Assembly: GCA_007122335.1 (NCBI GenBank)
Contig: SKTZ01000092.1
Location: forward strand, 285-64,284
Direction of reading: 5' to 3'
Origin: Bacillota bacterium
GTDB lineage: Bacteria > Bacillota > Halanaerobiia > B1SED10-174
DNA: 64,000 nt
Below the pieces are notes generated by a model. The model saw nothing but the letters and a program-made list of their open reading frames with translations, searched no databases and was not told the origin of the DNA. The stretch's first letter is position 1. Every line of letters starts with the position of its first letter. Below, piece by piece: positions 19,797 to 55,204 of the stretch. The position numbers and the translations under genes were made by a program.

Positions 19797-20066
19797 AGAT
19801 TAAAAGCAATGAAGGGAAGAGTAGACTCCTGGAAGGACCAACAGAGAGCTGCGGGAGCTGAAAAGCAGCGTCCGGGAAGGGAGTTGAAGATGGCCCCGGA
19901 GCTCTGCAATTGAAATCAGAGTAGGTTGCAACGGATTGGCCTCCGTTAAAGGGTCAGGGTTTTACAGGATTCCTGTAAAACCCGGAAGAGAACCAGGATT
20001 TTTTCCTGGTTGAATAAGGGTGGTACCGCGGTCCCTCGCCCCTTGCCGGGCTGAGGGATTTTATAA
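19797..20066 (+). promoter_or_regulatory. T-box riboswitch leader with Met specifier
   Basis: AGAGA and GCTGCGGGAG boxes are present. The ATG specifier lies at 19890-19892. The T-box motif AATAAGGGTGGTACCGCG lies at 20014-20030. A terminator hairpin (TCCCTC...GAGGGA) plus a T-run follows. Confidence 0.9.
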
Positions 20067-20087
20067 TTTTTGAAGGAGGTTTTAAAG

Positions 20088-22016
20088 ATGAAAAAAGGGC
20101 CTTATTATCTAACCACGCCTATTTATTACCCCAGCGGGAAACTGCATATTGGCCACACCTATACTACAGTGGCAGCAGATACCATTGCCCGCTATAAACG
20201 ACTGCAGGGTTATGATGTGTTTTTCCTCACGGGAACCGATGAACACGGTCAAAAAATTGAACGGAAAGCAAAAGAAGAGGGGAAGAACCCAAAAGATTAT
20301 GTGGATGAAATTGTTTTCTGGATCAAGGATCTCTGGAATTATTATGGGATTTCCTATGACCGGTTTATTCGGACTACTGATGAAGAACATAAAGAGGGTG
20401 TTCAGGAAATATTCCGCAGGTTGGAGAAGAAGGGAGACATTTACAAGGATAAATACGCAGGCTGGTACTGTGTACCCTGTGAAACCTTCTGGCTGGAAAG
20501 GCAGCTGGAGAATAAAACCTGTCCGGACTGCAATCGTAAGGTGGAGTGGATGGAGGAGGAAAGCTATTTCTTCCGTCTTTCCAACTACGCTGATCGCCTT
20601 CTGGAATATATTGAAAACAATCCGGAATTTATCCAGCCCGATACCAGACGGAATGAAATGGTTAATTTCATTAAACAGGGCCTGGAAGACCTCTGTATTT
20701 CAAGAACTTCAATTAACTGGGGAGTTCCAATTCCCGGAGCTCCGGGGCATGTTGCTTATGTCTGGATTGATGCTTTAAGCAACTATCTGACGGGGATCAA
20801 TTTCCCGGAAGGAAAGAAGTTCCAGAAATTCTGGCCCGCCGACCTGCACCTTGTTGGTAAGGAAATAATGCGCTTCCATACAATTATCTGGCCCATTATG
20901 CTACTGGCCCTGGACCTTCCTCTACCCAAACAGGTATTCGGCCACGGCTGGCTCATTTTAGACCAGGAAAAAATGTCTAAATCCAGGGGAAACGTTGTTG
21001 ACCCTTTTGCCCTGGGAGAGGAGTTTGGTGTTGACGCCATCCGTTATTACCTGTTGCGGGAAGTGGTTTTCGGTTCTGACGGGAATTATTCCCTCTCCGC
21101 ACTGATTAAAAGGATAAACTATGATCTGGCCAATGATCTGGGTAACCTCCTGCACCGGACGGTGACCATGATTGATAAATATTTTGGCGGAAAGATTCCC
21201 AAACCCGGTCCCGAAATTGACCCCGATGGTTCTCTCAAGGCCGAAGCAATAAATGCCCTCGGGGAAGTAGAGACAAATTTGGACCGGCTTTTTTTCCAGA
21301 ACGGCCTGGAAGGGTTGTGGAAATTTATCCGCCGCAGCAATAAATATATAGATGAAACCCAGCCCTGGATACTGGCCCGGGACGAGGCTCAAAAAGAAAG
21401 GCTGGGAACAGTTCTTTATAATCTTGCGGAAGCCCTGCGGATAATTTCCCTGGCCTTACGACCCTTTATGCCTGACACCCCACATGGGATCTGGCAGCAA
21501 CTGGGTCTGAAAAAAGACTTGGCCAAAATTCCCTGGGAAGCCGCTAAAAAATGGGGAGAAATTCCTGCGGGAACTAAGATCAGAAAAGGAAAGCCCCTTT
21601 TTCCTCGCCTGGAGCTTGAAGATTATGAGGATTGGGTCGCAAAAGAAAATGGAGAAAAGGAAGGTAAAGAAGAAACCAAGCAAGAACAACAATTTTCCCA
21701 GGTTGACTTTGCCAGGTTCAAGGAAATTGACCTGCGGGTGGCCCGTATTGAAAGGGTGGAGCCTGTTGAAGGCAGTGATAACCTGCTCAAGTTACAGGTA
21801 TCGCTGGGAGAAGAAACAAGACAGGTTGTTGCCGGACTGGCCCAGGAATATGAGCCCTGGGATCTGGTCGGGCGAAATGTTGCTTTTGTGGCCAACCTTG
21901 AACCTGCGGAAATATTTGGAGTGCGCTCTGAAGGAATGATTCTTGCCGCCGGAGAAAAAGGTAAGATGAAGATTGTCGAAATTCCGGGGGTTAATCCTGG
22001 AAGTCCAATTAGCTAA
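20088..22016 (+). CDS. metG: Methionine--tRNA ligase with a C-terminal tRNA-binding (EMAP/Trbp111-like) domain
   Basis: Contains PSGKLHIGH (the HIGH motif), KMSKS and a Zn knuckle (CVPC...CPDC). ATG at 20088 follows GAAGGAGG. Confidence 0.95.
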   Translation: MKKGPYYLTTPIYYPSGKLHIGHTYTTVAADTIARYKRLQGYDVFFLTGTDEHGQKIERKAKEEGKNPKDYVDEIVFWIKDLWNYYGISYDRFIRTTDEEHKEGVQEIFRRLEKKGDIYKDKYAGWYCVPCETFWLERQLENKTCPDCNRKVEWMEEESYFFRLSNYADRLLEYIENNPEFIQPDTRRNEMVNFIKQGLEDLCISRTSINWGVPIPGAPGHVAYVWIDALSNYLTGINFPEGKKFQKFWPADLHLVGKEIMRFHTIIWPIMLLALDLPLPKQVFGHGWLILDQEKMSKSRGNVVDPFALGEEFGVDAIRYYLLREVVFGSDGNYSLSALIKRINYDLANDLGNLLHRTVTMIDKYFGGKIPKPGPEIDPDGSLKAEAINALGEVETNLDRLFFQNGLEGLWKFIRRSNKYIDETQPWILARDEAQKERLGTVLYNLAEALRIISLALRPFMPDTPHGIWQQLGLKKDLAKIPWEAAKKWGEIPAGTKIRKGKPLFPRLELEDYEDWVAKENGEKEGKEETKQEQQFSQVDFARFKEIDLRVARIERVEPVEGSDNLLKLQVSLGEETRQVVAGLAQEYEPWDLVGRNVAFVANLEPAEIFGVRSEGMILAAGEKGKMKIVEIPGVNPGSPIS

Positions 22017-22032
22017 CAAAGGAGGCTAATCC

Positions 22033-22812
22033 ATGCAGTGGAAGGGCTTAATAGATACCCATGTCCACCTGGATTTTGGTCATTTTGATGGAGAAAGAGA
22101 GCAGATAATTGAAAGGGCCCGAAATGGTGGTGTGGAAAAGGTTATAAATATAGGGAGTAACCTAAAATCTTCGCAGGAAACAGTTAAGCTTATCAGAAGA
22201 TACCCAGATTATATCTTTGGGGCTGTGGGTGTCCACCCTCACAATGCCCGGGACCTTAATGGAGACATGCTTAGGAAAATAAAAGAGCTGGCTATAGAAG
22301 AAGGGATAGTTGCCCTGGGGGAGATGGGCCTTGATTTCCATTACGACAATTCTCCTCGTGATGATCAAAAAAGAGCATTTCGGGCCCAGCTCCGGCTGGC
22401 CAGGGAACTTGAAAAACCAGTCGTAATCCACTCCCGCTCTGCTGAAGGAGAAACAATTACTATTCTGCGGGAGGAAGGAATCCGGGAAATAGGTGGAGTA
22501 ATGCATTGTTTTTCGGGGAATCAGATTACAGCGGAAAAAGCCCTTGAAATGGGGTTATATCTTGCTTTTGGCGGGGTTATAACATTTCCCAAGGCTGATG
22601 AACTGAGGGCAATAGCAGCTTCTACACCCCTGGAGCGATTATTGATTGAGACAGATTCTCCCTACCTTACTCCCGTCCCTTACAGGGGGAAGAGAAATGA
22701 ACCCCTTTATGTGGGGTATGTCGCGGAGAAGCTGGCTGAAATTAGAGCGGAAAGCCTGGAAGAGGTAATAGAAGCAACCGCCGATAATGCTCGGAGATTA
22801 TTTAGGATCTAA
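22033..22812 (+). CDS. tatD: TatD-family metal-dependent hydrolase (YabD)
   Basis: Contains IDTHVHLD, GEMGLDFHY and ETDSPYL. Confidence 0.9.
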   Translation: MQWKGLIDTHVHLDFGHFDGEREQIIERARNGGVEKVINIGSNLKSSQETVKLIRRYPDYIFGAVGVHPHNARDLNGDMLRKIKELAIEEGIVALGEMGLDFHYDNSPRDDQKRAFRAQLRLARELEKPVVIHSRSAEGETITILREEGIREIGGVMHCFSGNQITAEKALEMGLYLAFGGVITFPKADELRAIAASTPLERLLIETDSPYLTPVPYRGKRNEPLYVGYVAEKLAEIRAESLEEVIEATADNARRLFRI

Positions 22813-23063
22813 GGAATGGATAATTAAAGGGAGATCCAGAGATAGGGTCTCTCTTTTTCTTTTCGGGGTTAAACAGCAAACTACCCATGGGGGGAAAAAC
22901 AGGATGACTTTTTTGGAGAATGGAACGCTTTAATGTTATGGTTTCAGCAGTATCCTGTCCAAAGGGGTTTCTAAGACGGAGCAGGATAGTAATGCCCTGG
23001 GGTTATATTATTTTCAAGCCTATGATTTTCCGAGGTTCTGGTTAATTTAAAACCGAAAACCAA

Positions 23064-23106
23064 AAGACCCGGTCCCTATTTTATGATAGACCCGGGTCTT
23101 TTTATT
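23064..23106. terminator. Bidirectional intrinsic terminator
   Basis: Hairpin AGACCCGG...CCGGGTCT, with TTTTTATT on the + strand and TTTTGGTTTT on the - strand. Confidence 0.7.
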
Positions 23107-23133
23107 CCCTTTCTGCAATATTTTTTATTTTCA

Positions 23134-23235
23134 TCAGCCAATCAGTCCCCATTTCAGGCATAACCTTCTTATGTAGGCTCTGATGGCTTCCTCGTCATAA
23201 AGTAATTTATTCGGGCATTCATTCTTACAGATCAT
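23134..23235 (-). CDS. Micro-ORF D (33 aa): MICKNECPNKLLYDEEAIRAYIRRLCLKWGLIG
   Basis: ATG lies 7 nt after CAAGGAGGT. Translated by hand. Too short to appear in the ORF track. Confidence 0.4.
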   Translation of the reverse strand: MICKNECPNKLLYDEEAIRAYIRRLCLKWGLIG

Positions 23236-23259
23236 CTTTTCACCTCCTTGCTCAAGAAT

Positions 23260-23343
23260 TTATTTCCGAAACCTGTCTCGCCTGTTGCTCTTCCGGGAGA
23301 TTTCTCTTTCCTTGAACTCAGCAATTAAGCTTCTATCAAACAT
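23260..23343 (-). CDS. Micro-ORF C (27 aa): MFDRSLIAEFKEREISRKSNRRDRFRK
   Basis: ATG lies 7 nt after AAAGGAGGT. Translated by hand. Confidence 0.4.
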   Translation of the reverse strand: MFDRSLIAEFKEREISRKSNRRDRFRK

Positions 23344-23367
23344 CTCAATACCTCCTTTTGATTTTTT

Positions 23368-23451
23368 TTACCTTCGCTTCTGGCGCTGTCGAATTTGCGC
23401 AGAATAGAGAAGGTTGTCCCTGTGATTATTGGGGAGAGGGATTGCTGTCAT
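23368..23451 (-). CDS. Micro-ORF B (27 aa): MTAIPLPNNHRDNLLYSAQIRQRQKRR
   Basis: ATG lies 8 nt after GGGAGGGAGG. An in-frame GTG at 23460 is an alternative start. Confidence 0.4.
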   Translation of the reverse strand: MTAIPLPNNHRDNLLYSAQIRQRQKRR

Positions 23452-23478
23452 TCCATTCACCTCCCTCCCTCTCGCCTT

Positions 23479-23559
23479 TTAGCCTTTTCGACTTCTTTGG
23501 CGCTGGGCTTGAGCCCTTAGTTCCTGGATTTTTTCTTTTGCCAGAAGATATTCTATCAT
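23479..23559 (-). CDS. Micro-ORF A (26 aa): MIEYLLAKEKIQELRAQAQRQRSRKG
   Basis: ATG lies 8 nt after AAAGGAGG. This is the first cistron after the promoter. Confidence 0.4.
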   Translation of the reverse strand: MIEYLLAKEKIQELRAQAQRQRSRKG

Positions 23560-23598
23560 TTTTTGGACCTCCTTTCCTTTGATTTTAACAATAATGAG

Positions 23599-23627
23599 AT
23601 TATATGCTAAAAATAGATGATAGTCAA
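23599..23627 (-). promoter_or_regulatory. Near-consensus sigma-A promoter of the micro-ORF unit
   Basis: On the minus strand: TTGACT (23622-23627), exact 17 nt spacer, TATAAT (23599-23604). An A/T-rich UP-like tract lies at 23630-23700. Confidence 0.65.
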
Positions 23628-23707
23628 GCATAATTTCAATAAAAATCAATAAAAAAATTAAAAAATTTAATCAATACCTAATAAATATTTTGATAATGTT
23701 TAGCCTG

Positions 23708-25204
23708 CTATTCTGCTGCTGGACTAAAGGGAGACTGCAAGAAGATTATTTCCCCATTTGATAGATGGGGAAAATAGGGGGTTGAAGGGAGTCGAGTGAT
23801 AGTTTTTTCCCAGTTTTGGGTCCTTGTTTCGAAAAGCCCAAGGGCTTCTGCTCCGGTCTGGGGATGGATAAACTTAAGCAATAATTTACTTTCTTCCCGA
23901 TCCAGTATTTCCAAAAGCCTTTGGTTTTCGGTTAAGGAGGTAATTGCTCCCTCCTGGTAAAAGTAAAGATTGCCCCCGGGAACTTTCCGGGGTTCCTCCC
24001 GATTGGATAGGAAATAAACCCGGTCATTATCTCCGGGCCAAGGAGACCAGTTCTGGAAGGGGCCCTCTGCGATGGTTTTTAATTCCCCGGTGCTATCCAG
24101 ACCAAGAAGATGGCGGTAGGGTCCTTCATCTTCTGCAAAGTAAAGTGTAGCGTTTGACTGGCCGTAATAAAGGTTGCTCAGGTATTGTGGGGAGCTAAGG
24201 AGAATCTCTTGCTCTGGTTTTTGGGGACTTCCCAGTACGATTTCATATTCACCCTCGTTGCGGCGAACATAATAAATATTTTCATCATCTTTAGCGGTAG
24301 GCCAGTCTAGGTAGTTTTCCGAAATTAAATAGGGGGAAAAAGAGTTGTTATCCAGATCATACAGAGCCAGGCTGTGATAGGTTCCTTCCAGGTAAAAACT
24401 GTGAAAAATAAAAGAGTTGTTAACCCTGGTAAATGTAACGGGAGTTGGGATAATCCCGGGGGTAAGAGGAAGAGAAGCGAAATCATCTCTTGTAATAAAG
24501 GAATAAATGTCTTCTCTTTTTTCCACATAATCAAGGGCGCTGGAAACAACCTGTTGGTGGCGGTGGAGCAAATTCTCACTCTGCAGGGCGATAACAAGCT
24601 GATGCATCAGGTCTGGCCTTAATCTATATCTATCCAGGAGATAATCCATAACTACCAGGCCCAGCCCACGGTTATAACGCCAGTCCAAGTCCCTGCCAAG
24701 TCTTCTCCGGATTTCATCGGGGTTGAAGTTCAGGTTCTGGCGGAGGTGAGCATGGTATTCGGGCCCAAAAAAATGCAGGCCAACCAGATATTCCGTCTGA
24801 ATATCAGAAAACCAGACATTATGGGGTGTAAGGGAATAGAATTCTTTCTGGAAGATGTGGACCAATTCGTGGTAAAGGACCATTTCGTTGCTGTAGGGGC
24901 GACGTTTTTCAATGATAAAGTGGATTCGGTTGTAAAGAAGCAATGCATCGATACTTTCTGGGGCGGAAGGGTGAGGTTTATTCTGCAAATAATCGAGCCG
25001 CCCGTCATAAAAGGTAATGTTAATTGGAGAAGGAGGACGGACTCGAAAAATTCTCCGGAGTTCTTCCCAGAATTCTTCTCCGCGGTTGAGTAAATATGAA
25101 GCAAATTCTTCGTCGCCCCTGAAATTTCCCTGGAGGCTCTCTGCCCCGACCGGGCCTGAGAACAATAAAGAAACTATCAGGAATAAAAAGATTACCTTTC
25201 TCAT
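23708..25204 (-). CDS. Secreted HExxH-motif protein with a C-terminal TolB/PD40-like beta-propeller region
   Basis: Has a signal peptide (...GPVGAES) and YHELVHIF. The C-terminal half is rich in repeated Y/W-containing strands. The ORF opens at 25222, and the likely start is the ATG at 25204 after GGGGGCGG. Confidence 0.5.
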   Translation of the reverse strand: MRKVIFLFLIVSLLFSGPVGAESLQGNFRGDEEFASYLLNRGEEFWEELRRIFRVRPPSPINITFYDGRLDYLQNKPHPSAPESIDALLLYNRIHFIIEKRRPYSNEMVLYHELVHIFQKEFYSLTPHNVWFSDIQTEYLVGLHFFGPEYHAHLRQNLNFNPDEIRRRLGRDLDWRYNRGLGLVVMDYLLDRYRLRPDLMHQLVIALQSENLLHRHQQVVSSALDYVEKREDIYSFITRDDFASLPLTPGIIPTPVTFTRVNNSFIFHSFYLEGTYHSLALYDLDNNSFSPYLISENYLDWPTAKDDENIYYVRRNEGEYEIVLGSPQKPEQEILLSSPQYLSNLYYGQSNATLYFAEDEGPYRHLLGLDSTGELKTIAEGPFQNWSPWPGDNDRVYFLSNREEPRKVPGGNLYFYQEGAITSLTENQRLLEILDREESKLLLKFIHPQTGAEALGLFETRTQNWEKTITRLPSTPYFPHLSNGEIIFLQSPFSPAAE

Positions 25205-25244
25205 TATTTTAACCGCCCCCAAATAATCGCTTGATTTTTTTCGA

Positions 25245-25275
25245 AAGTCAAAAAGGAGCCCCGTCGGGGCTCCTT
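25245..25275 (-). terminator. Intrinsic terminator after the beta-barrel gene
   Basis: Hairpin GGAGCCCC-gac-GGGGCTCC with TTTTT on the minus strand. Confidence 0.75.
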
Positions 25276-25278
25276 TGT

Positions 25279-26541
25279 TTAGAAACTAATTGATGAACCG
25301 AATTGGAGGGATACTTCTTTACCGCTCCCCGTTGCGAGTTTGATATCAGAGATTGTGAAATTAAAAATTTCCCAACCCCAGGCTTTTATTCCAAAGCCTG
25401 CAAAAAGAGAAGGAGTTCCCTTATGAGAGGCAAAATCCAGGCCAACCGTTACAGGAAGCCACTGGGGATAGAAAAAACGGGTTGCAGCAGAAATTCCCAG
25501 GTGGAAAACAGGAGCCTGGTAAAGCCCAATTGTCCCCCCAAGGTGGATTTTGGGGTGGGCTACGTAGTGGACTCCACCTTCAAGACTAATGGGAGTGCTT
25601 CGGATGATCGGGTCATGGGGCTGATCAGTTATTTGATCTTCTTCATATTCTATCCATTCCTCACCTTCTTCAACAAGGAGGGGATGTTTTATTTTTGCTT
25701 CTCCTGAGAATTTTGTTTGCCTGACTCCGCTCCAGCGGATGAAACCCAGGTTATTCAGAGAAATTCCCACCCCGAGTTTGGGATTAATTTGGCCCCAGGC
25801 GCCAATGTCAATTGCTGCACCGTGCCCTCCGCCTCCTTCCATGCCCCTAGCAGAGTAGAGGGCATTAAATTCTCCTTCGGCATAGAATGGATCTTCTCCT
25901 TCTTCCGATGAAATCAGGATAGTTCCATCGGTGTTGACTTCGGCGTAGGCCAGGCCATTAAGGTAGTGGATACCCCCTCCAATAGTTACCCGGTCAAAGT
26001 CAAACTGCTGGGCTAGGGAAGGGAAGTCTAAGGCATGGGAAAACCCAATATCAACTACTCCCTGACCCTGCAGGAAGGAATTATCAAGATGGATCTCTTC
26101 ATCCAGCTCGTTGCCAAAAAGGGCCAGTTCAAAGAAATCCTTATCAAGCCCTGTTGCAGCAAAGGCTTTTAATCCTCCCTGGACTCCGGAGCTACCGAAA
26201 CCAAAAAACACGTTAGAAGATGCTCCCATTCCTACTGAGAAAGCATCTCCAGAGATTGCTCCCAGGAGTTCGGATTTTTTTTCTTCGTCCCAGTATTCAT
26301 TGAAGTTTTCCAGGATTTGGTTTACAGTCCAGGCATTGGACCACATATTCAGAGAGAGAGAGTTAAACTGGAGTTGATAATTATAGGTGGCAAAACCAAG
26401 CAGAGCAGGGTTTGCCTCTAGACTGGCGACCTGTCCGGGGAAAATCCGCAAGGAGGCGGGTGTTTCACCTGCTGCAAGGGCTGGGAAAGAAACAGTCAGG
26501 AGCAACAACAAAACCAGAGAAACAACTTTTACTTTATTCAT
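25279..26541 (-). CDS. Putative outer-membrane beta-barrel protein
   Basis: Preceded by the SD AAAGGAGG. Signal peptide ...SFPALA. An ANPALLG motif lies near the N-terminus. Alternating hydrophobic pattern, Gly/aromatic-rich. C-terminus is ...VSLQFGSSISF (terminal Phe). Confidence 0.45.
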   Translation of the reverse strand: MNKVKVVSLVLLLLLTVSFPALAAGETPASLRIFPGQVASLEANPALLGFATYNYQLQFNSLSLNMWSNAWTVNQILENFNEYWDEEKKSELLGAISGDAFSVGMGASSNVFFGFGSSGVQGGLKAFAATGLDKDFFELALFGNELDEEIHLDNSFLQGQGVVDIGFSHALDFPSLAQQFDFDRVTIGGGIHYLNGLAYAEVNTDGTILISSEEGEDPFYAEGEFNALYSARGMEGGGGHGAAIDIGAWGQINPKLGVGISLNNLGFIRWSGVRQTKFSGEAKIKHPLLVEEGEEWIEYEEDQITDQPHDPIIRSTPISLEGGVHYVAHPKIHLGGTIGLYQAPVFHLGISAATRFFYPQWLPVTVGLDFASHKGTPSLFAGFGIKAWGWEIFNFTISDIKLATGSGKEVSLQFGSSISF

Positions 26542-26557
26542 CTAATTGGGCCTCCTT

Positions 26558-28492
26558 TCAATCTTCATGCGGGTTAACCCGGATTTCAACATCCAGATTA
26601 GCCTTTGTGGAGAAGGAATCTCCGTATTTAAAGATGATCTCTTGGGGTTCGGTGATATCTTTTAGGATTTCTACCCTGATGCCATACCAGGCAGGTTCTT
26701 TGAAAGTCTCCAAATCATCCTTGGAAATTTCAACAAGGTAATTTTCCGCTGTCCCGGTTTCAGGCAGGCCAATTGTCCAATTAGGATTATCCTGATCGAA
26801 TATGTTTTCTTCATCATTGCTGAAGAAAACCGTTATATCCAGATAAAGGGGCAGGTCATTGGCGTTGTAGAAATCAATCAGGACATTTTGGATCCATCCA
26901 TCTAAAACATCCTGGTCATCGGTATCCAGTTCCAGTTTTCCGGTAGCAACATCATTTTCTACTCCTCCTGGTTGAACCAGGAATTTTAACTTGAAATCAG
27001 CGTCCCCGACCATGCTGAAATAATCAGCGCGAGTAATTGTAATGTCGTCTTCACCTTCGGGAATGGCTATTTCAAGGGTTGATTCGGGAATCTTAATGGA
27101 ATGGGGCATGCTGGGTATTTCTCCACTTAAGAATCGGATTTCTTTGGCTTCCCGGGGGTCAACATTGAAGTCATCTGCTTCAATTACACTTTCTTCTTCT
27201 GTCCCCTCGTGAGTATAGAGAAGGATCAGGGAAAGATCGCTGCTAAGTACAAAATCTGTTTGATTGTCTACCTGGAGGATTAGGGTAATGGCCTCTTCGG
27301 CCAGCCCGATTCCTTCAAGCCATTCTTCCAGTTCATCCAATCCTGTTGCAAATATTTCTTCATCGATGGTGAAATCCTCCATATCCGTCAGGAGTCCGGA
27401 AACCGTAATTTCTTTCCAGAGAAGGTCGGCTAAGGATATGTTAAAATCAACAGTTTCGGTAGTGTCATAAGTAACGTCAGTTCCCGCGGCCCGGAAATCA
27501 ATTTTCACTTCCAGGCTATCTTCCAGGTTAAAAACGACACCCTCAATGGAGAAAACTCCCTCGCTGACCGGGGATAGCTCCTGGTCATTGATATAAATTT
27601 TTTCAATGGAGAAGTCAATGTTCCAAGCATCTGGAATATTTGGGGCCAGGATTAATTTACCCTCTTCCATTACAATCTCTTTTATATTTTCATCAAATTC
27701 ATCAGCAAGTAGATTTAGGGTGAGGGATTCCTCGACATCTATTTCATCCAGGCCGGTTACTTTTTCTATTGTTATTGAATCCATTTTCACCGAATAATTC
27801 AATTGCCCATTGTAGTCCTGGTTGGGGTTAGTTATTCTAAATTCCAGATCGATTTCATTGGGTAAATCTGTTCCAGCGAGGTCAATTTCCACATGTGCTG
27901 TCCCATCGCTGAACTGGGATGATCCTTGGGCAAGTTCCTGCCCGTTATCGAAGAGAATTATTTCTATATCGAATTCAAGGTCATTATCTTCCGGATCGAT
28001 TGCCAGGAATAAATCAAGAGTCCCCTGCCTGATTGTAATGGTAGTAAAATTATCGCTCAGGTCCACAGGAGGAACCTCTTCATCCAGAGTGATATCGGTG
28101 TTTTCAGCGAAGCCAAAAGAATCAATTGTTCCATTGAAAACCTCGCCAAAATCAATCTTAATTTCAGGCATTGTAGTTTCTATAGGATCGTAGTCAATAT
28201 CCTCCAGTTCAATTTCATCCAGCCCGAAGTCCATTTTATCAAGTTCGAACTCGAAAGAAAAAATATCTTCGTCATCGTATTCTTGGTCATTTTCATTAAG
28301 AATATCTACCAGTTTTATTTCCTGCGTTGGGATCAGAGGTAACCTCACATTTGTATCCCAGGAGGGCCCACGCATCTCTTCCTGCATGAAGTCGTTAATT
28401 GCACTACAGCCCGCAATCAAAAACAAGGCAATGAATAATAACAGGGGAATTTTCCAAAAGCTGCATTTAAGCAAAATTCTCCCTCCTTTCAT
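26558..28492 (-). CDS. Large, highly acidic (Asp/Glu-rich) lipoprotein, function unknown
   Basis: Lipobox LIAGCSA. D/E-rich throughout. An alternative TTG start at 28474 is preceded by AAAGGAGGGAG. Confidence 0.5.
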   Translation of the reverse strand: MKGGRILLKCSFWKIPLLLFIALFLIAGCSAINDFMQEEMRGPSWDTNVRLPLIPTQEIKLVDILNENDQEYDDEDIFSFEFELDKMDFGLDEIELEDIDYDPIETTMPEIKIDFGEVFNGTIDSFGFAENTDITLDEEVPPVDLSDNFTTITIRQGTLDLFLAIDPEDNDLEFDIEIILFDNGQELAQGSSQFSDGTAHVEIDLAGTDLPNEIDLEFRITNPNQDYNGQLNYSVKMDSITIEKVTGLDEIDVEESLTLNLLADEFDENIKEIVMEEGKLILAPNIPDAWNIDFSIEKIYINDQELSPVSEGVFSIEGVVFNLEDSLEVKIDFRAAGTDVTYDTTETVDFNISLADLLWKEITVSGLLTDMEDFTIDEEIFATGLDELEEWLEGIGLAEEAITLILQVDNQTDFVLSSDLSLILLYTHEGTEEESVIEADDFNVDPREAKEIRFLSGEIPSMPHSIKIPESTLEIAIPEGEDDITITRADYFSMVGDADFKLKFLVQPGGVENDVATGKLELDTDDQDVLDGWIQNVLIDFYNANDLPLYLDITVFFSNDEENIFDQDNPNWTIGLPETGTAENYLVEISKDDLETFKEPAWYGIRVEILKDITEPQEIIFKYGDSFSTKANLDVEIRVNPHED

Positions 28493-28924: not shown

Positions 28925-29497
28925 ATGGCAATTGTTTACCCCTATGGTGAAAATATCTATATCAACCAGACCAATGTGTGCACAAATGCCTGTGTTTTCT
29001 GTATCCGGCGGGGTAATTCTGGGCTGGATGGTTATAACCTCTGGCTTGCAGAAGAACCATCGGCAGAGGATATTTTACAGGCACTGAGAAAAAATGAAAT
29101 ACAGGGCGAAGCAGTTTTTTGTGGTTTTGGAGAACCCATGGTCCGCCTGGACCGCTTATTAACTGTTGCCCGGGGTTTAAAAGAGAGAGGCTGGTGGGTT
29201 CGGATTAATACCAATGGACATGCTGATCTCATTCATGGTTATGAGACTGTCCCCCGCCTGGAAGGTTTGGTCGATGCGATAAATGTAAGCCTGAATGCCC
29301 AGGATGGAAAAACCTATCAACGGCTCTGCAATCCCCTTTTTGCAGACCGGGCTTATCCAGTATTGTTAGATTTTGCCCGGAAAGTAAGGGAATATGTTCC
29401 GGAAGTAATACTTTCTGTTGTCAATTACCCCGGGGTAGATGTACAAGCCTGCCGGGAAATTGCAGATAAAATGGGGACTGAATTCAGACTCAGATAA
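28925..29497 (+). CDS. Small radical SAM protein, probably the TatD-associated type
   Basis: Contains CTNACVFC (CxxxCxxC) and GFGEP, and is about 190 aa. Assignment to the TatD-associated family is from memory of that family's size and motifs. Confidence 0.6.
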   Translation: MAIVYPYGENIYINQTNVCTNACVFCIRRGNSGLDGYNLWLAEEPSAEDILQALRKNEIQGEAVFCGFGEPMVRLDRLLTVARGLKERGWWVRINTNGHADLIHGYETVPRLEGLVDAINVSLNAQDGKTYQRLCNPLFADRAYPVLLDFARKVREYVPEVILSVVNYPGVDVQACREIADKMGTEFRLR

Positions 29498-54442: not shown

Positions 54443-54517
54443 TGGGGTGTGGCCAAGTGGTAAGGCAAAGGACTTTGGATCCTTTATTCCCAGGTTCGAA
54501 TCCTGGCACCCCAGCCA
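54443..54517 (+). tRNA. tRNA-Gln (UUG)
   Basis: Cloverleaf with anticodon loop CTTTGGA between AAGGA/TCCTT. CCA is encoded. Confidence 0.9.
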
Positions 54518-54520
54518 GAC

Positions 54521-54596
54521 GGGCCATTAGCTCAGTTGGCAGAGCACCTGACTTTTAATCAGGGTGTCCCAGGTTCGAATCCTGGATGGCTCACCA
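54521..54596 (+). tRNA. tRNA-Lys (UUU)
   Basis: Anticodon loop CTTTTAA between CCTGA/TCAGG. GGTTCGAATCC T-arm. CCA is encoded. Confidence 0.9.
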
Positions 54597-54599
54597 AAT

Positions 54600-54676
54600 C
54601 GCGGGATAGAGCAGTCTGGTAGCTCGTCAGGCTCATAACCTGGAGGTCGTCGGTTCAAATCCGACTCCCGCAACCA
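54600..54676 (+). tRNA. Initiator tRNA-fMet (CAU)
   Basis: Has the C1-A72 mismatch (CGCGGGA...CCCGCAA) and is nearly identical in layout to the E. coli and B. subtilis initiators. The anticodon stem has only two of the usual three G-C pairs (CAGG/CCTG). Confidence 0.85.
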
Positions 54677-54693
54677 ATGCTAAAAACTTAGGC

Positions 54694-54787
54694 GGAGAGA
54701 TACCCAAGTCGGCTGAAGGGGCGGGTTTGCTAAACCTGTAGTAGGGGATCTCCCCTAGCGAGGGTTCGAATCCCTCTCTCTCCGCCA
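54694..54787 (+). tRNA. tRNA-Ser (GCU)
   Basis: Acceptor stem GGAGAGA...TCTCTCC plus G plus CCA. Long variable arm. Anticodon loop TTGCTAA. Confidence 0.9.
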
Positions 54788-54792
54788 TATAC

Positions 54793-54868
54793 GCCCCCAT
54801 CGTCTAGTGGACTAGGACACCGCCCTTTCACGGCGGCGGCAGGGGTTCAAATCCCCTTGGGGGTGCCA
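54793..54868 (+). tRNA. tRNA-Glu (UUC)
   Basis: Anticodon loop CTTTCAC between CCGCC/GGCGG. Confidence 0.9.
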
Positions 54869-54871
54869 TAC

Positions 54872-54947
54872 GGGCGGATAGCTCAGTTGGGAGAGCACCT
54901 GCCTTACAAGCAGGGGGTCACAGGTTCAAGTCCTGTTTCGCCCACCA
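54872..54947 (+). tRNA. tRNA-Val (UAC)
   Basis: Anticodon loop CTTACAA between CCTGC/GCAGG. Confidence 0.9.
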
Positions 54948-54959
54948 TTTTAAACAAGC

Positions 54960-55036
54960 GGAGCTGTAGCGAAGTGGCTCAACGCGCCGGCCTGTCACGC
55001 CGGAGACCGCGGGTTCGAATCCCGTCAGCTCCGCCA
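54960..55036 (+). tRNA. tRNA-Asp (GUC)
   Basis: Anticodon loop CTGTCAC between CCGGC/GCCGG. Acceptor stem GGAGCTG/CAGCTCC. Confidence 0.9.
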
Positions 55037-55044
55037 CTTTTTTT

Positions 55045-55120
55045 GCCGATGTAGCTCAGCAGGTAGAGCACATCCATGGTAAGGATGGGGTCACCGGTTC
55101 AAATCCGGTCATCGGCTCCA
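55045..55120 (+). tRNA. tRNA-Thr (GGU)
   Basis: Anticodon loop ATGGTAA between CATCC/GGATG. Confidence 0.9.
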
Positions 55121-55128
55121 CTTTTTGT

Positions 55129-55204
55129 GGGGATGTAGCTCAGTTGGGAGAGCGCGTGAATGGCATTCACGAGGTCAGGGGTTCGATTCCCCTCATCTCC
55201 ACCA
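55129..55204 (+). tRNA. tRNA-Ala (GGC)
   Basis: The G3:U70 identity pair is present. Anticodon loop ATGGCAT between CGTGA/TCACG. Confidence 0.9.

Follow-up and report, generated by a model that had tools for sequence, protein, structure and literature searches.

A conserved operon of four tandem microprotein genes in soda-lake Halobacteroidaceae

Results

Organization of the locus

We analyzed a 64,000-nucleotide (nt) stretch of DNA from a Bacillota bacterium (assembly GCA_007122335.1, contig SKTZ01000092.1, positions 285 to 64,284), hereafter called the window. This study deals with four very small open reading frames (ORFs), named A, B, C and D, which stand in tandem on its minus strand. 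Positions 23053-23700 form a self-contained unit, which consists of an AT-rich tract, a promoter, the four micro-ORFs, each with a Shine-Dalgarno (SD) sequence and an ATG, and a hairpin/T-run terminator. A first-pass annotation, made from the DNA letters alone, had pointed out this unit, and all of the elements that it listed (promoter, four ORFs, their quoted peptides and terminator) were found. The features are given below from upstream to downstream. The lineages are the relatives described in the next section, and handles beginning with L refer to relatives. Lengths of proteins are in amino acids (aa).

23708-25204, minus strand: gene of a 498-aa protein, the constant upstream neighbor; given as context only, with no functional link to A-D claimed
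23628-23707, minus strand: A+T-rich (84%) tract resembling an upstream promoter (UP) element, lying after the 498-aa stop codon and ahead of the -35 element
23599-23627, minus strand: sigma-70/sigma-A-type promoter, TTGACT-17 nt-TATAAT, 11/12 match
23479-23559, minus strand: ORF A, 26 aa, MIEYLLAKEKIQELRAQAQRQRSRKG; SD GAAAGGAGGT; kept in seven lineages and in L012
23434-23473, minus strand: RNA hairpin, stem GAGAGGGA / UCCCUCUC, 24-nt loop; invariant; the loop has the SD (GGAGGUGA) and AUG of ORF B
23368-23451, minus strand: ORF B, 27 aa, MTAIPLPNNHRDNLLYSAQIRQRQKRR; kept in seven lineages, with a GTG start in L016
23260-23343, minus strand: ORF C, 27 aa, MFDRSLIAEFKEREISRKSNRRDRFRK; SD AAAGGAGGT; kept in seven lineages, with a GTG start in L016
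23134-23235, minus strand: ORF D, 33 aa, MICKNECPNKLLYDEEAIRAYIRRLCLKWGLIG; SD AAGGAGGTGA; the only one of A-D called by gene finders
23053-23106, minus strand: intrinsic terminator hairpin (AAAAGACCCGGGTC...GACCGGGTCTTTT) with T-runs on both strands; conserved in all lineages

The four ORFs are conserved as protein genes

Among 15 billion collected protein predictions, D is found and A, B and C are not. The contigs encoding it are soda-lake sediment metagenomes and metagenome-assembled genomes (MAGs) with the same gene order, and they are 99-100% identical over the unit. The first 10 contigs with D, being at this level of identity, were uninformative for conservation. Among 5.8 billion proteins, homologues of the 498-aa protein form only seven clusters (clustered at 90% identity), which show 100, 84, 67, 66, 52, 51 and 47% identity. 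Seven lineages were assembled from the contigs carrying these homologues and from genome and metagenome scans; the scans with the 498-aa profile gave no lineages beyond those already recovered. Since the called gene is the 498-aa version starting with ATG, an exact look-up of a 504-aa version starting with TTG gave no match. The lineages are uncultured soda-lake Halobacteroidaceae, and two of the contigs belong to MAGs with the label 'Halobacteroidaceae bacterium'.

A, B, C and D each possess an SD and a start codon in all seven lineages, down to 47% identity of the 498-aa neighbor. The lineage in which B and C start with GTG, L016, is the most divergent one. Indels in the spacers between the ORFs are not multiples of three, so that the relative frames of the ORFs differ between lineages, whereas length changes within the ORFs preserve the frame. 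The pooled ratio of nonsynonymous to synonymous substitution rates (dN/dS, Nei-Gojobori) was 0.10-0.24, with synonymous sites near saturation. Differences were in excess at third codon positions (for example, 24/12/49 differences by codon position). When each ORF was taken singly, the proportion of synonymous differences (pS) was well above that of nonsynonymous differences (pN); for ORF A, pS was 0.48-0.75 and pN was 0.17-0.44. Of the close relatives in the population, L005 is changed relative to the window at five intergenic positions plus a single synonymous one, and L001 has one conservative R-to-K change.

The first-pass annotation had made the conservation of frames and start codons its test, and both are conserved in the seven lineages, with synonymous-biased substitutions. 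Since the frames and the ribosome-binding sites (RBSs) are kept and dN/dS is 0.10-0.24 with third-position bias, the four ORFs are real protein genes and not chance ORFs or non-coding RNA. The description of the unit as a translated, self-contained four-cistron operon is likewise borne out by the ORFs, SDs, starts, promoter and terminator kept in the seven lineages. From these comparisons, the unit is almost certainly an operon with its own promoter and terminator, whose four microprotein genes are each translated separately and each under purifying selection on the amino-acid sequence, and which is restricted to a narrow clade of uncultured soda-lake Halobacteroidaceae.

Other reading frames at the locus were also compared. 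A 56-aa, TTG-extended form of ORF A is annotated by gene callers in some contigs. This form is not conserved, and in L019 (the 84% lineage) a stop one codon upstream closes the extension. The antisense open stretches are not conserved either; their frame, extent and sequence differ in each lineage. In L019, at about positions 173-250, an out-of-frame ATG 7 nt upstream of the ATG of A opens a 26-aa ORF (MKNDRTSSGKRKNQGSKGPGQAPKKS) that overlaps A. This ORF is seen in that lineage only and is probably not functional.

Ribosome-binding sites

Only five ATG ORFs of 18-45 aa in the 64 kb (both strands) have GGAGG 5-12 nt upstream, and four of the five are A-D; the earlier statement that four good RBSs are improbable by chance is in agreement with this count. 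Complementarity to the anti-SD sequence is 10, 8, 9 and 10 nt for the four micro-ORFs. Among the 55 long reading frames in the window, which were scored generously, each by its best candidate start, 10 reach at least 8 nt and none reaches 10 nt. Thus, the RBSs of A-D are the strongest in the window.

Promoter, upstream tract and terminator

The top promoter-like site in 22000-25500 is TTGACT-17-TATAAT, with 11 of 12 positions matched. The -35 element is at 23627-23622 and the -10 element is at 23604-23599 (minus strand), with a 17-nt spacer. The near-consensus promoter of the first-pass annotation is therefore present, and it is kept in all seven lineages as TTGAC[AT]-17/18-TATAAT; the spacer sequence varies among them, and 37-40 nt separate the end of the promoter from the ATG of A. 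The 80 nt upstream of the -35 element are 84% A+T, as compared with 54% for the whole window, and the lineages partly retain one block of this UP-like tract, TTAAA(A/T)TTTTTAAT.TTTTTATT. Downstream of the 498-aa gene, no terminator was detected ahead of the tract, so that read-through is possible. At the other end of the unit, the terminator is a G+C-rich hairpin (23102-23062) with T-runs on either side. It is kept in all lineages and shows three compensatory pairs, which are contributed by L016. A second promoter-like site matching at 11 of 12 positions, TGGACA-16-TATAAT, lies at 22235-22208 (minus strand), antisense inside tatD, and is probably a chance match.

Properties of the peptides

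Peptides A-C are hydrophilic and highly basic. Their grand average of hydropathy (GRAVY) is -1.1 to -1.55, their isoelectric point (pI) is 10.2-12.0, and their net charge is +4 to +8. K and R make up 40-60% of the last ten residues, and the basic positions are conserved. The N-terminal segment shows a helical, heptad-like L/I pattern in A and C and contains Pro in B; an Arg/Gln/Lys-rich tail follows. Invariant in A-C are, among others, basic residues of the tail and a motif L-L/I-A or L-L-x-x-A.

Peptide D has a nearly neutral hydropathy (GRAVY -0.06 to -0.39) and the invariant core LLYD..AIR.YI..LC..W.L. A single helix is predicted at residues 15-28, which covers the invariant core, with a predicted local distance difference test score (pLDDT) of about 72-85. 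D is predicted to be an amphipathic helix, less basic than the others, with an acidic YDEEA patch. The three Cys residues reported previously for D are present, but only C26 is conserved across lineages.

Over 11 residues, the mean Kyte-Doolittle value does not rise above 0.44 in A-C or above 1.11 in D, and by hydropathy no transmembrane-like hydrophobic segment or signal peptide was detected in A-D. Hydropathy thus bears out the earlier view that the peptides are not type I toxins, signal peptides or SpoVM-like helices.

In the window, the ATGs of A-D are spaced exactly 108 nt apart and share one frame, a regularity that is absent from the first-pass annotation. In the relatives the spacing is not exact but varies between 104 and 115 nt. 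The 108-nt units have 24-44% identity in register, and Tandem Repeats Finder reported no 108-nt repeat in the unit because the units are too diverged at the DNA level. A duplication linking A and B had been proposed from their tails. The shared tail and an 8-mer, CAGCGCCA, are real, but the relationship is statistically weak (hhalign P=0.02). Paralogy was supported neither for A and B nor for B and D, and a better signal was obtained for A and C (hhalign P=1.4e-4 over 13 columns). The unit length of about 108 nt and the weak similarity of A and C suggest that the array probably arose by ancient tandem duplication.

A hairpin at the start of ORF B

Within the unit, conservation at the DNA level is highest in two parts, CGAGAGGGAGGGAGGTG before B and TCCCTCTCC in codons 4-7 of B. 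These parts contain the hairpin stem GAGAGGGA/UCCCUCUC, purine-rich on one side and pyrimidine-rich on the other, with 8-9 base pairs and a loop of about 24 nt exposing the SD and AUG of B. The free energy of the hairpin is -17 to -22 kcal/mol, with z-scores of -2.1 to -3.7 for three of the four lineages analyzed. No change is seen in the stem, not even at the third positions of codons 4-6 of B, whereas synonymous sites elsewhere are near saturation. As the stem never varies, it shows no covariation. The motif is unique within the window, and a search of viral contigs with the hairpin arm gave no matches.

Searches for related families

No family was found for A-D in Pfam or NCBIfam, and no match in PHROGs or PADLOC. 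Rfam 15 gave no hit at gathering thresholds in the region of the unit and none at E<=1 over 22800-23720. Profile searches of PDB sequences with A and D gave chance-level matches only (E>=0.8), and tblastn searches of phage and plasmid records with the peptides detected no relatives. An exhaustive phmmer search with D against 1.84 billion representative proteins recovered only its own cluster and the L016 version. A concatenated A+B+C+D profile returned nothing at E<=10; since the cluster of D itself was not listed, this result means only that there is no fused or longer relative. These negative results agree with the earlier statement that the peptides belong to no named family, and on their sequences A-D are a new family of microproteins.

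Several candidate relatives were rejected. The two further hits of the phmmer search, P0009 (884 aa, 14 repeats) and P0010 (a tetratricopeptide repeat protein), matched D by chance, amplified by their repeats. The pattern LLYDEDAIR gave 12 matches in viral contigs, all inside one 443-aa phage protein, and is a chance 9-mer.

Neighboring genes

The 498-aa protein possesses a signal peptide and two further parts, a helical domain in which the motif HELVH (HExxH) is invariant and a C-terminal TolB-like beta-propeller; the protein has no Pfam family. Its gene adjoins A-D in all seven lineages, and the distance from its stop to the start of D is 473-485 nt. The other flanks vary: PspC, a 638-aa protein and a DUF5723 protein lie upstream in some lineages, and tatD or other genes lie downstream. 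Of the proposed co-occurrence with neighboring envelope genes, therefore, the part concerning the 498-aa gene holds in every lineage, and the part concerning the PspC, 638-aa and DUF5723 genes holds in some only. The 498-aa gene is preceded by a hairpin at 25276-25252 and then TTGACT at 25251-25246, which is a terminator-then-promoter arrangement of its own. Further upstream, 25279-28492 (minus strand) encodes a 420-aa DUF5723 protein (E=4e-18) and a 638/644-aa protein without a family, both poorly characterized; in related contigs, a 61-aa PspC-domain gene precedes these two genes. The PspC/638-aa/DUF5723 block may be an envelope gene cluster of a diderm member of the Bacillota.

On the plus strand, tatD lies at 22033-22812, and a 190-aa radical SAM protein of the 'TatD family nuclease-associated' type (TIGR04038, 229 bits) is encoded at 28925-29497. 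An opposite-strand block of about 6 kb (PspC, 638-aa, DUF5723 and 498-aa genes and A-D) separates the two; a shorter block (PspC, 498-aa gene and A-D) is found in the 51-52% lineages. Since this block stands on the opposite strand between tatD and the gene normally linked to it, it looks like an insertion specific to the clade. The identity of radical-SAM homologues is at least 73% within the clade, then 63% and 56%, and at most 53% in unrelated Bacillota. The outgroup contigs at 63% (L023) and 56% (L024) have no trace of A-D, but at 2-3 kb they are too short to prove absence.

The stretch of about 200 nt at 22857-23052, between a terminator-like hairpin of tatD (22826-22856, plus strand) and the A-D terminator, contains no convincing ORF or Rfam match, and by eye it is not conserved between the window and L019. 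Elsewhere on the plus strand, a T-box leader (RF00230, 119 bits; 19800-20046) stands directly upstream of the methionyl-tRNA synthetase gene (20070-22016), an ordinary arrangement, and a cluster of nine tRNA genes lies at 54443-55201.

Discussion

Possible RNA-binding function

As for the function of A-D, our tentative interpretation, which we hold to be the likeliest of those considered but no more than possible, is that the products are abundant cytoplasmic RNA-binding peptides, possibly acting on rRNA or the ribosome; we infer a role for the hairpin with the same reserve. The tails of A-C resemble arginine-rich-motif (ARM) peptides in composition. ARM peptides (lambda N, HIV Rev/Tat) and the small ribosomal proteins of particular lineages (Thx, bS22, bL37) are basic, about 20-35 aa long, and bind an RNA hairpin or rRNA through an Arg/Gln-rich segment. 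The tails of A-C are like them in size and composition but have no sequence homology with them. A-C would bind RNA or the ribosome through the Arg/Gln/Lys-rich tails, and D, as an amphipathic helix, might associate with the basic peptides or serve as the nucleus of a small hetero-oligomer. The invariant hairpin may serve as a cis-regulatory element, either for translational control or as an mRNA-processing site, and it may be bound by one of the peptides (autoregulation). In the fullest form of this proposal, which is a rather doubtful one, A-D would be a hitherto unknown RNA-binding family with three ARM-like peptides and an amphipathic partner, acting on the ribosome or on their own hairpin in an autoregulatory circuit.

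Action on RNA by small basic or Arg-rich proteins has precedent in FbpA-C (PMC10730256) and in DUF1127 proteins such as CcaF1 (PMC8034643). FbpA, FbpB and FbpC of Bacillus subtilis are Fur-regulated basic proteins of 54, 48 and 29 aa, which are proposed to be RNA chaperones (PMC10730256). They are small basic Bacillota proteins like A-C, and a functional analogy is plausible. Unlike A-D, they are regulated by Fur and do not form a four-gene tandem array. A comparison with the Fbp proteins had been proposed in the first-pass annotation, and it fails on the Fur box: in a search for a 7-1-7 box with up to three mismatches, no site was detected over the promoter, the nearest three-mismatch match was at 23691-23705, and the total was near chance. 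At the level of Pfam and NCBIfam family models, A-D showed no similarity to Fbp. DUF1127 proteins (CcaF1, YjiS) are small, arginine-rich, RNA-binding or regulatory, and often present in several copies; the domain is 45-50 aa long and occurs mainly in Alpha- and Gammaproteobacteria (PMC8034643). A-C are likewise small and Arg-rich, but no Pfam match to DUF1127 (PF06568) was detected in A-D even at E<=1, and A-D are also shorter than the domain. With respect to the ribosomal mini-proteins (bL34, bL36, Thx, bS22 and others), A-D match no Pfam or NCBIfam model, and A and D match no ribosome chain in the PDB. To our knowledge, there is no precedent for a single narrow clade with four new ribosomal proteins.

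The following points weigh against the RNA-binding interpretation. The resemblance to ARM peptides is compositional only. The sole conserved gene linkage is with a secreted envelope protein, which fits poorly with a cytoplasmic RNA-binding role. Moreover, the hairpin shows no covariation, and its conservation could stem from overlapping SD and coding constraints.

Alternative explanations

The main alternative is that A-D work together with the 498-aa HExxH/TolB-like envelope protein as one functional module, in which they could be, for example, its substrates, inhibitors, pre-export chaperones or propeller ligands. The 498-aa gene stands next to A-D in all seven lineages though the other flanks differ, no terminator separates the two, and the 498-aa family (seven clusters among 5.8 billion proteins) and D (two clusters) are confined to the same clade. 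In addition, TolB-type propellers bind short disordered peptides. However, the 498-aa protein has a signal peptide, whereas A-D have neither a signal peptide nor a hydrophobic segment, so that different compartments are expected. A-D also have their own conserved strong promoter, and co-occurrence in one narrow clade may be inherited synteny. We thus consider this partnership unlikely.

It is very unlikely that A-D are a leaderless multi-peptide bacteriocin or other exported cationic peptides acting on the membranes of competitors, although the architecture is similar: four tandem genes for peptides of about 30 aa, with pI above 10 and net charge +4 to +5. Leaderless bacteriocins (aureocin A70 aurABCD, garvicin KS and cereucins) have, like A-D, three to four tandem leaderless genes of about 30-34 aa, which are separately translated, and their products are cationic with pI about 11 (PMC6131525). 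The aureocin A70 peptides are 30-31 aa long, with pI 10.7-11.0, net charge +4 to +5 and GRAVY +0.53 to +0.71 (PMC6131525). The hydropathy of A-C is opposite (GRAVY -1.1 to -1.55), and A-C lack an amphipathic membrane-active segment. Leaderless bacteriocins, unlike A-C, are hydrophobic (GRAVY +0.4 to +0.7) and mutually homologous and have transporter and immunity genes adjacent. A-D are without the mutual homology that defines leaderless bacteriocin groups and have no family match, and no ABC transporter or immunity gene is found in the conserved neighborhood.

In the staphylococcal psm-alpha operon, which encodes phenol-soluble modulins (PSMs), four consecutive micro-cistrons of 20-22 aa are carried on one short, highly expressed transcript. 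PSMs are amphipathic, hydrophobic cytolysins that are exported by a dedicated transporter. The four tandem micro-cistrons in a short transcript are like those of A-D; unlike PSMs, however, A-C have no hydrophobic face of sufficient length for membrane activity. We know of no sequence relation between the psm-alpha peptides and A-D.

A small toxin-antitoxin, addiction or phage-defence cassette of micro-ORFs would fit small, clade-restricted, rapidly gained genes in an apparent inserted block between tatD and the radical-SAM partner. This is highly improbable: there is no PADLOC or PHROG match, none was detected in phage or plasmid records or viral contigs, neither a hydrophobic toxin-like segment nor a conserved antisense ORF is present, and the locus is stable and vertically inherited over seven lineages.

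That the unit is a non-coding or structured RNA, that the act of translation alone matters, or that the real gene is an antisense 74-aa ORF or the 56-aa extended A is scarcely credible in spite of the highly conserved hairpin inside the unit, the long antisense open stretches and the annotation of the 56-aa ORF in some contigs, since in each ORF dN/dS is 0.10-0.24 and differences favor third positions, indels that preserve the frame are confined to the ORFs, the antisense stretches are unconserved, the extension of A is closed in L019, and Rfam gives no match at E<=1. On the sequence comparisons, a non-coding RNA, an antisense gene and an extended ORF A are essentially excluded as explanations.

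Other kinds of small peptides were also considered and rejected. Precursors of ribosomally synthesized and post-translationally modified peptides would share a leader and have a modifying enzyme adjacent, neither of which is found; the nearby radical SAM protein is of the housekeeping TIGR04038 type. Attenuation leader peptides were rejected since there is no gene downstream; the terminator and the convergent tatD come next after D. Sporulation-specific small proteins do not agree with a promoter of sigma-A type.

Significance

Genes below about 30 codons are missed almost systematically, and three of the four described here are absent from the 15 billion predicted proteins. The present case shows that comparative genomics alone can establish such tiny genes as real. 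The practical value is limited, as the clade is narrow and uncultured and the function is inferred. The known tandem microprotein operons (PSMs and leaderless bacteriocins) encode hydrophobic, membrane-active peptides, and a conserved, presumably strongly expressed operon of hydrophilic, highly basic peptides is a different variant. If A-D bind RNA or the ribosome as proposed, they would represent a new type of small-protein regulator in diderm Bacillota, and their four microprotein components would set the system apart from the operons of hydrophobic toxin and bacteriocin peptides so far known.

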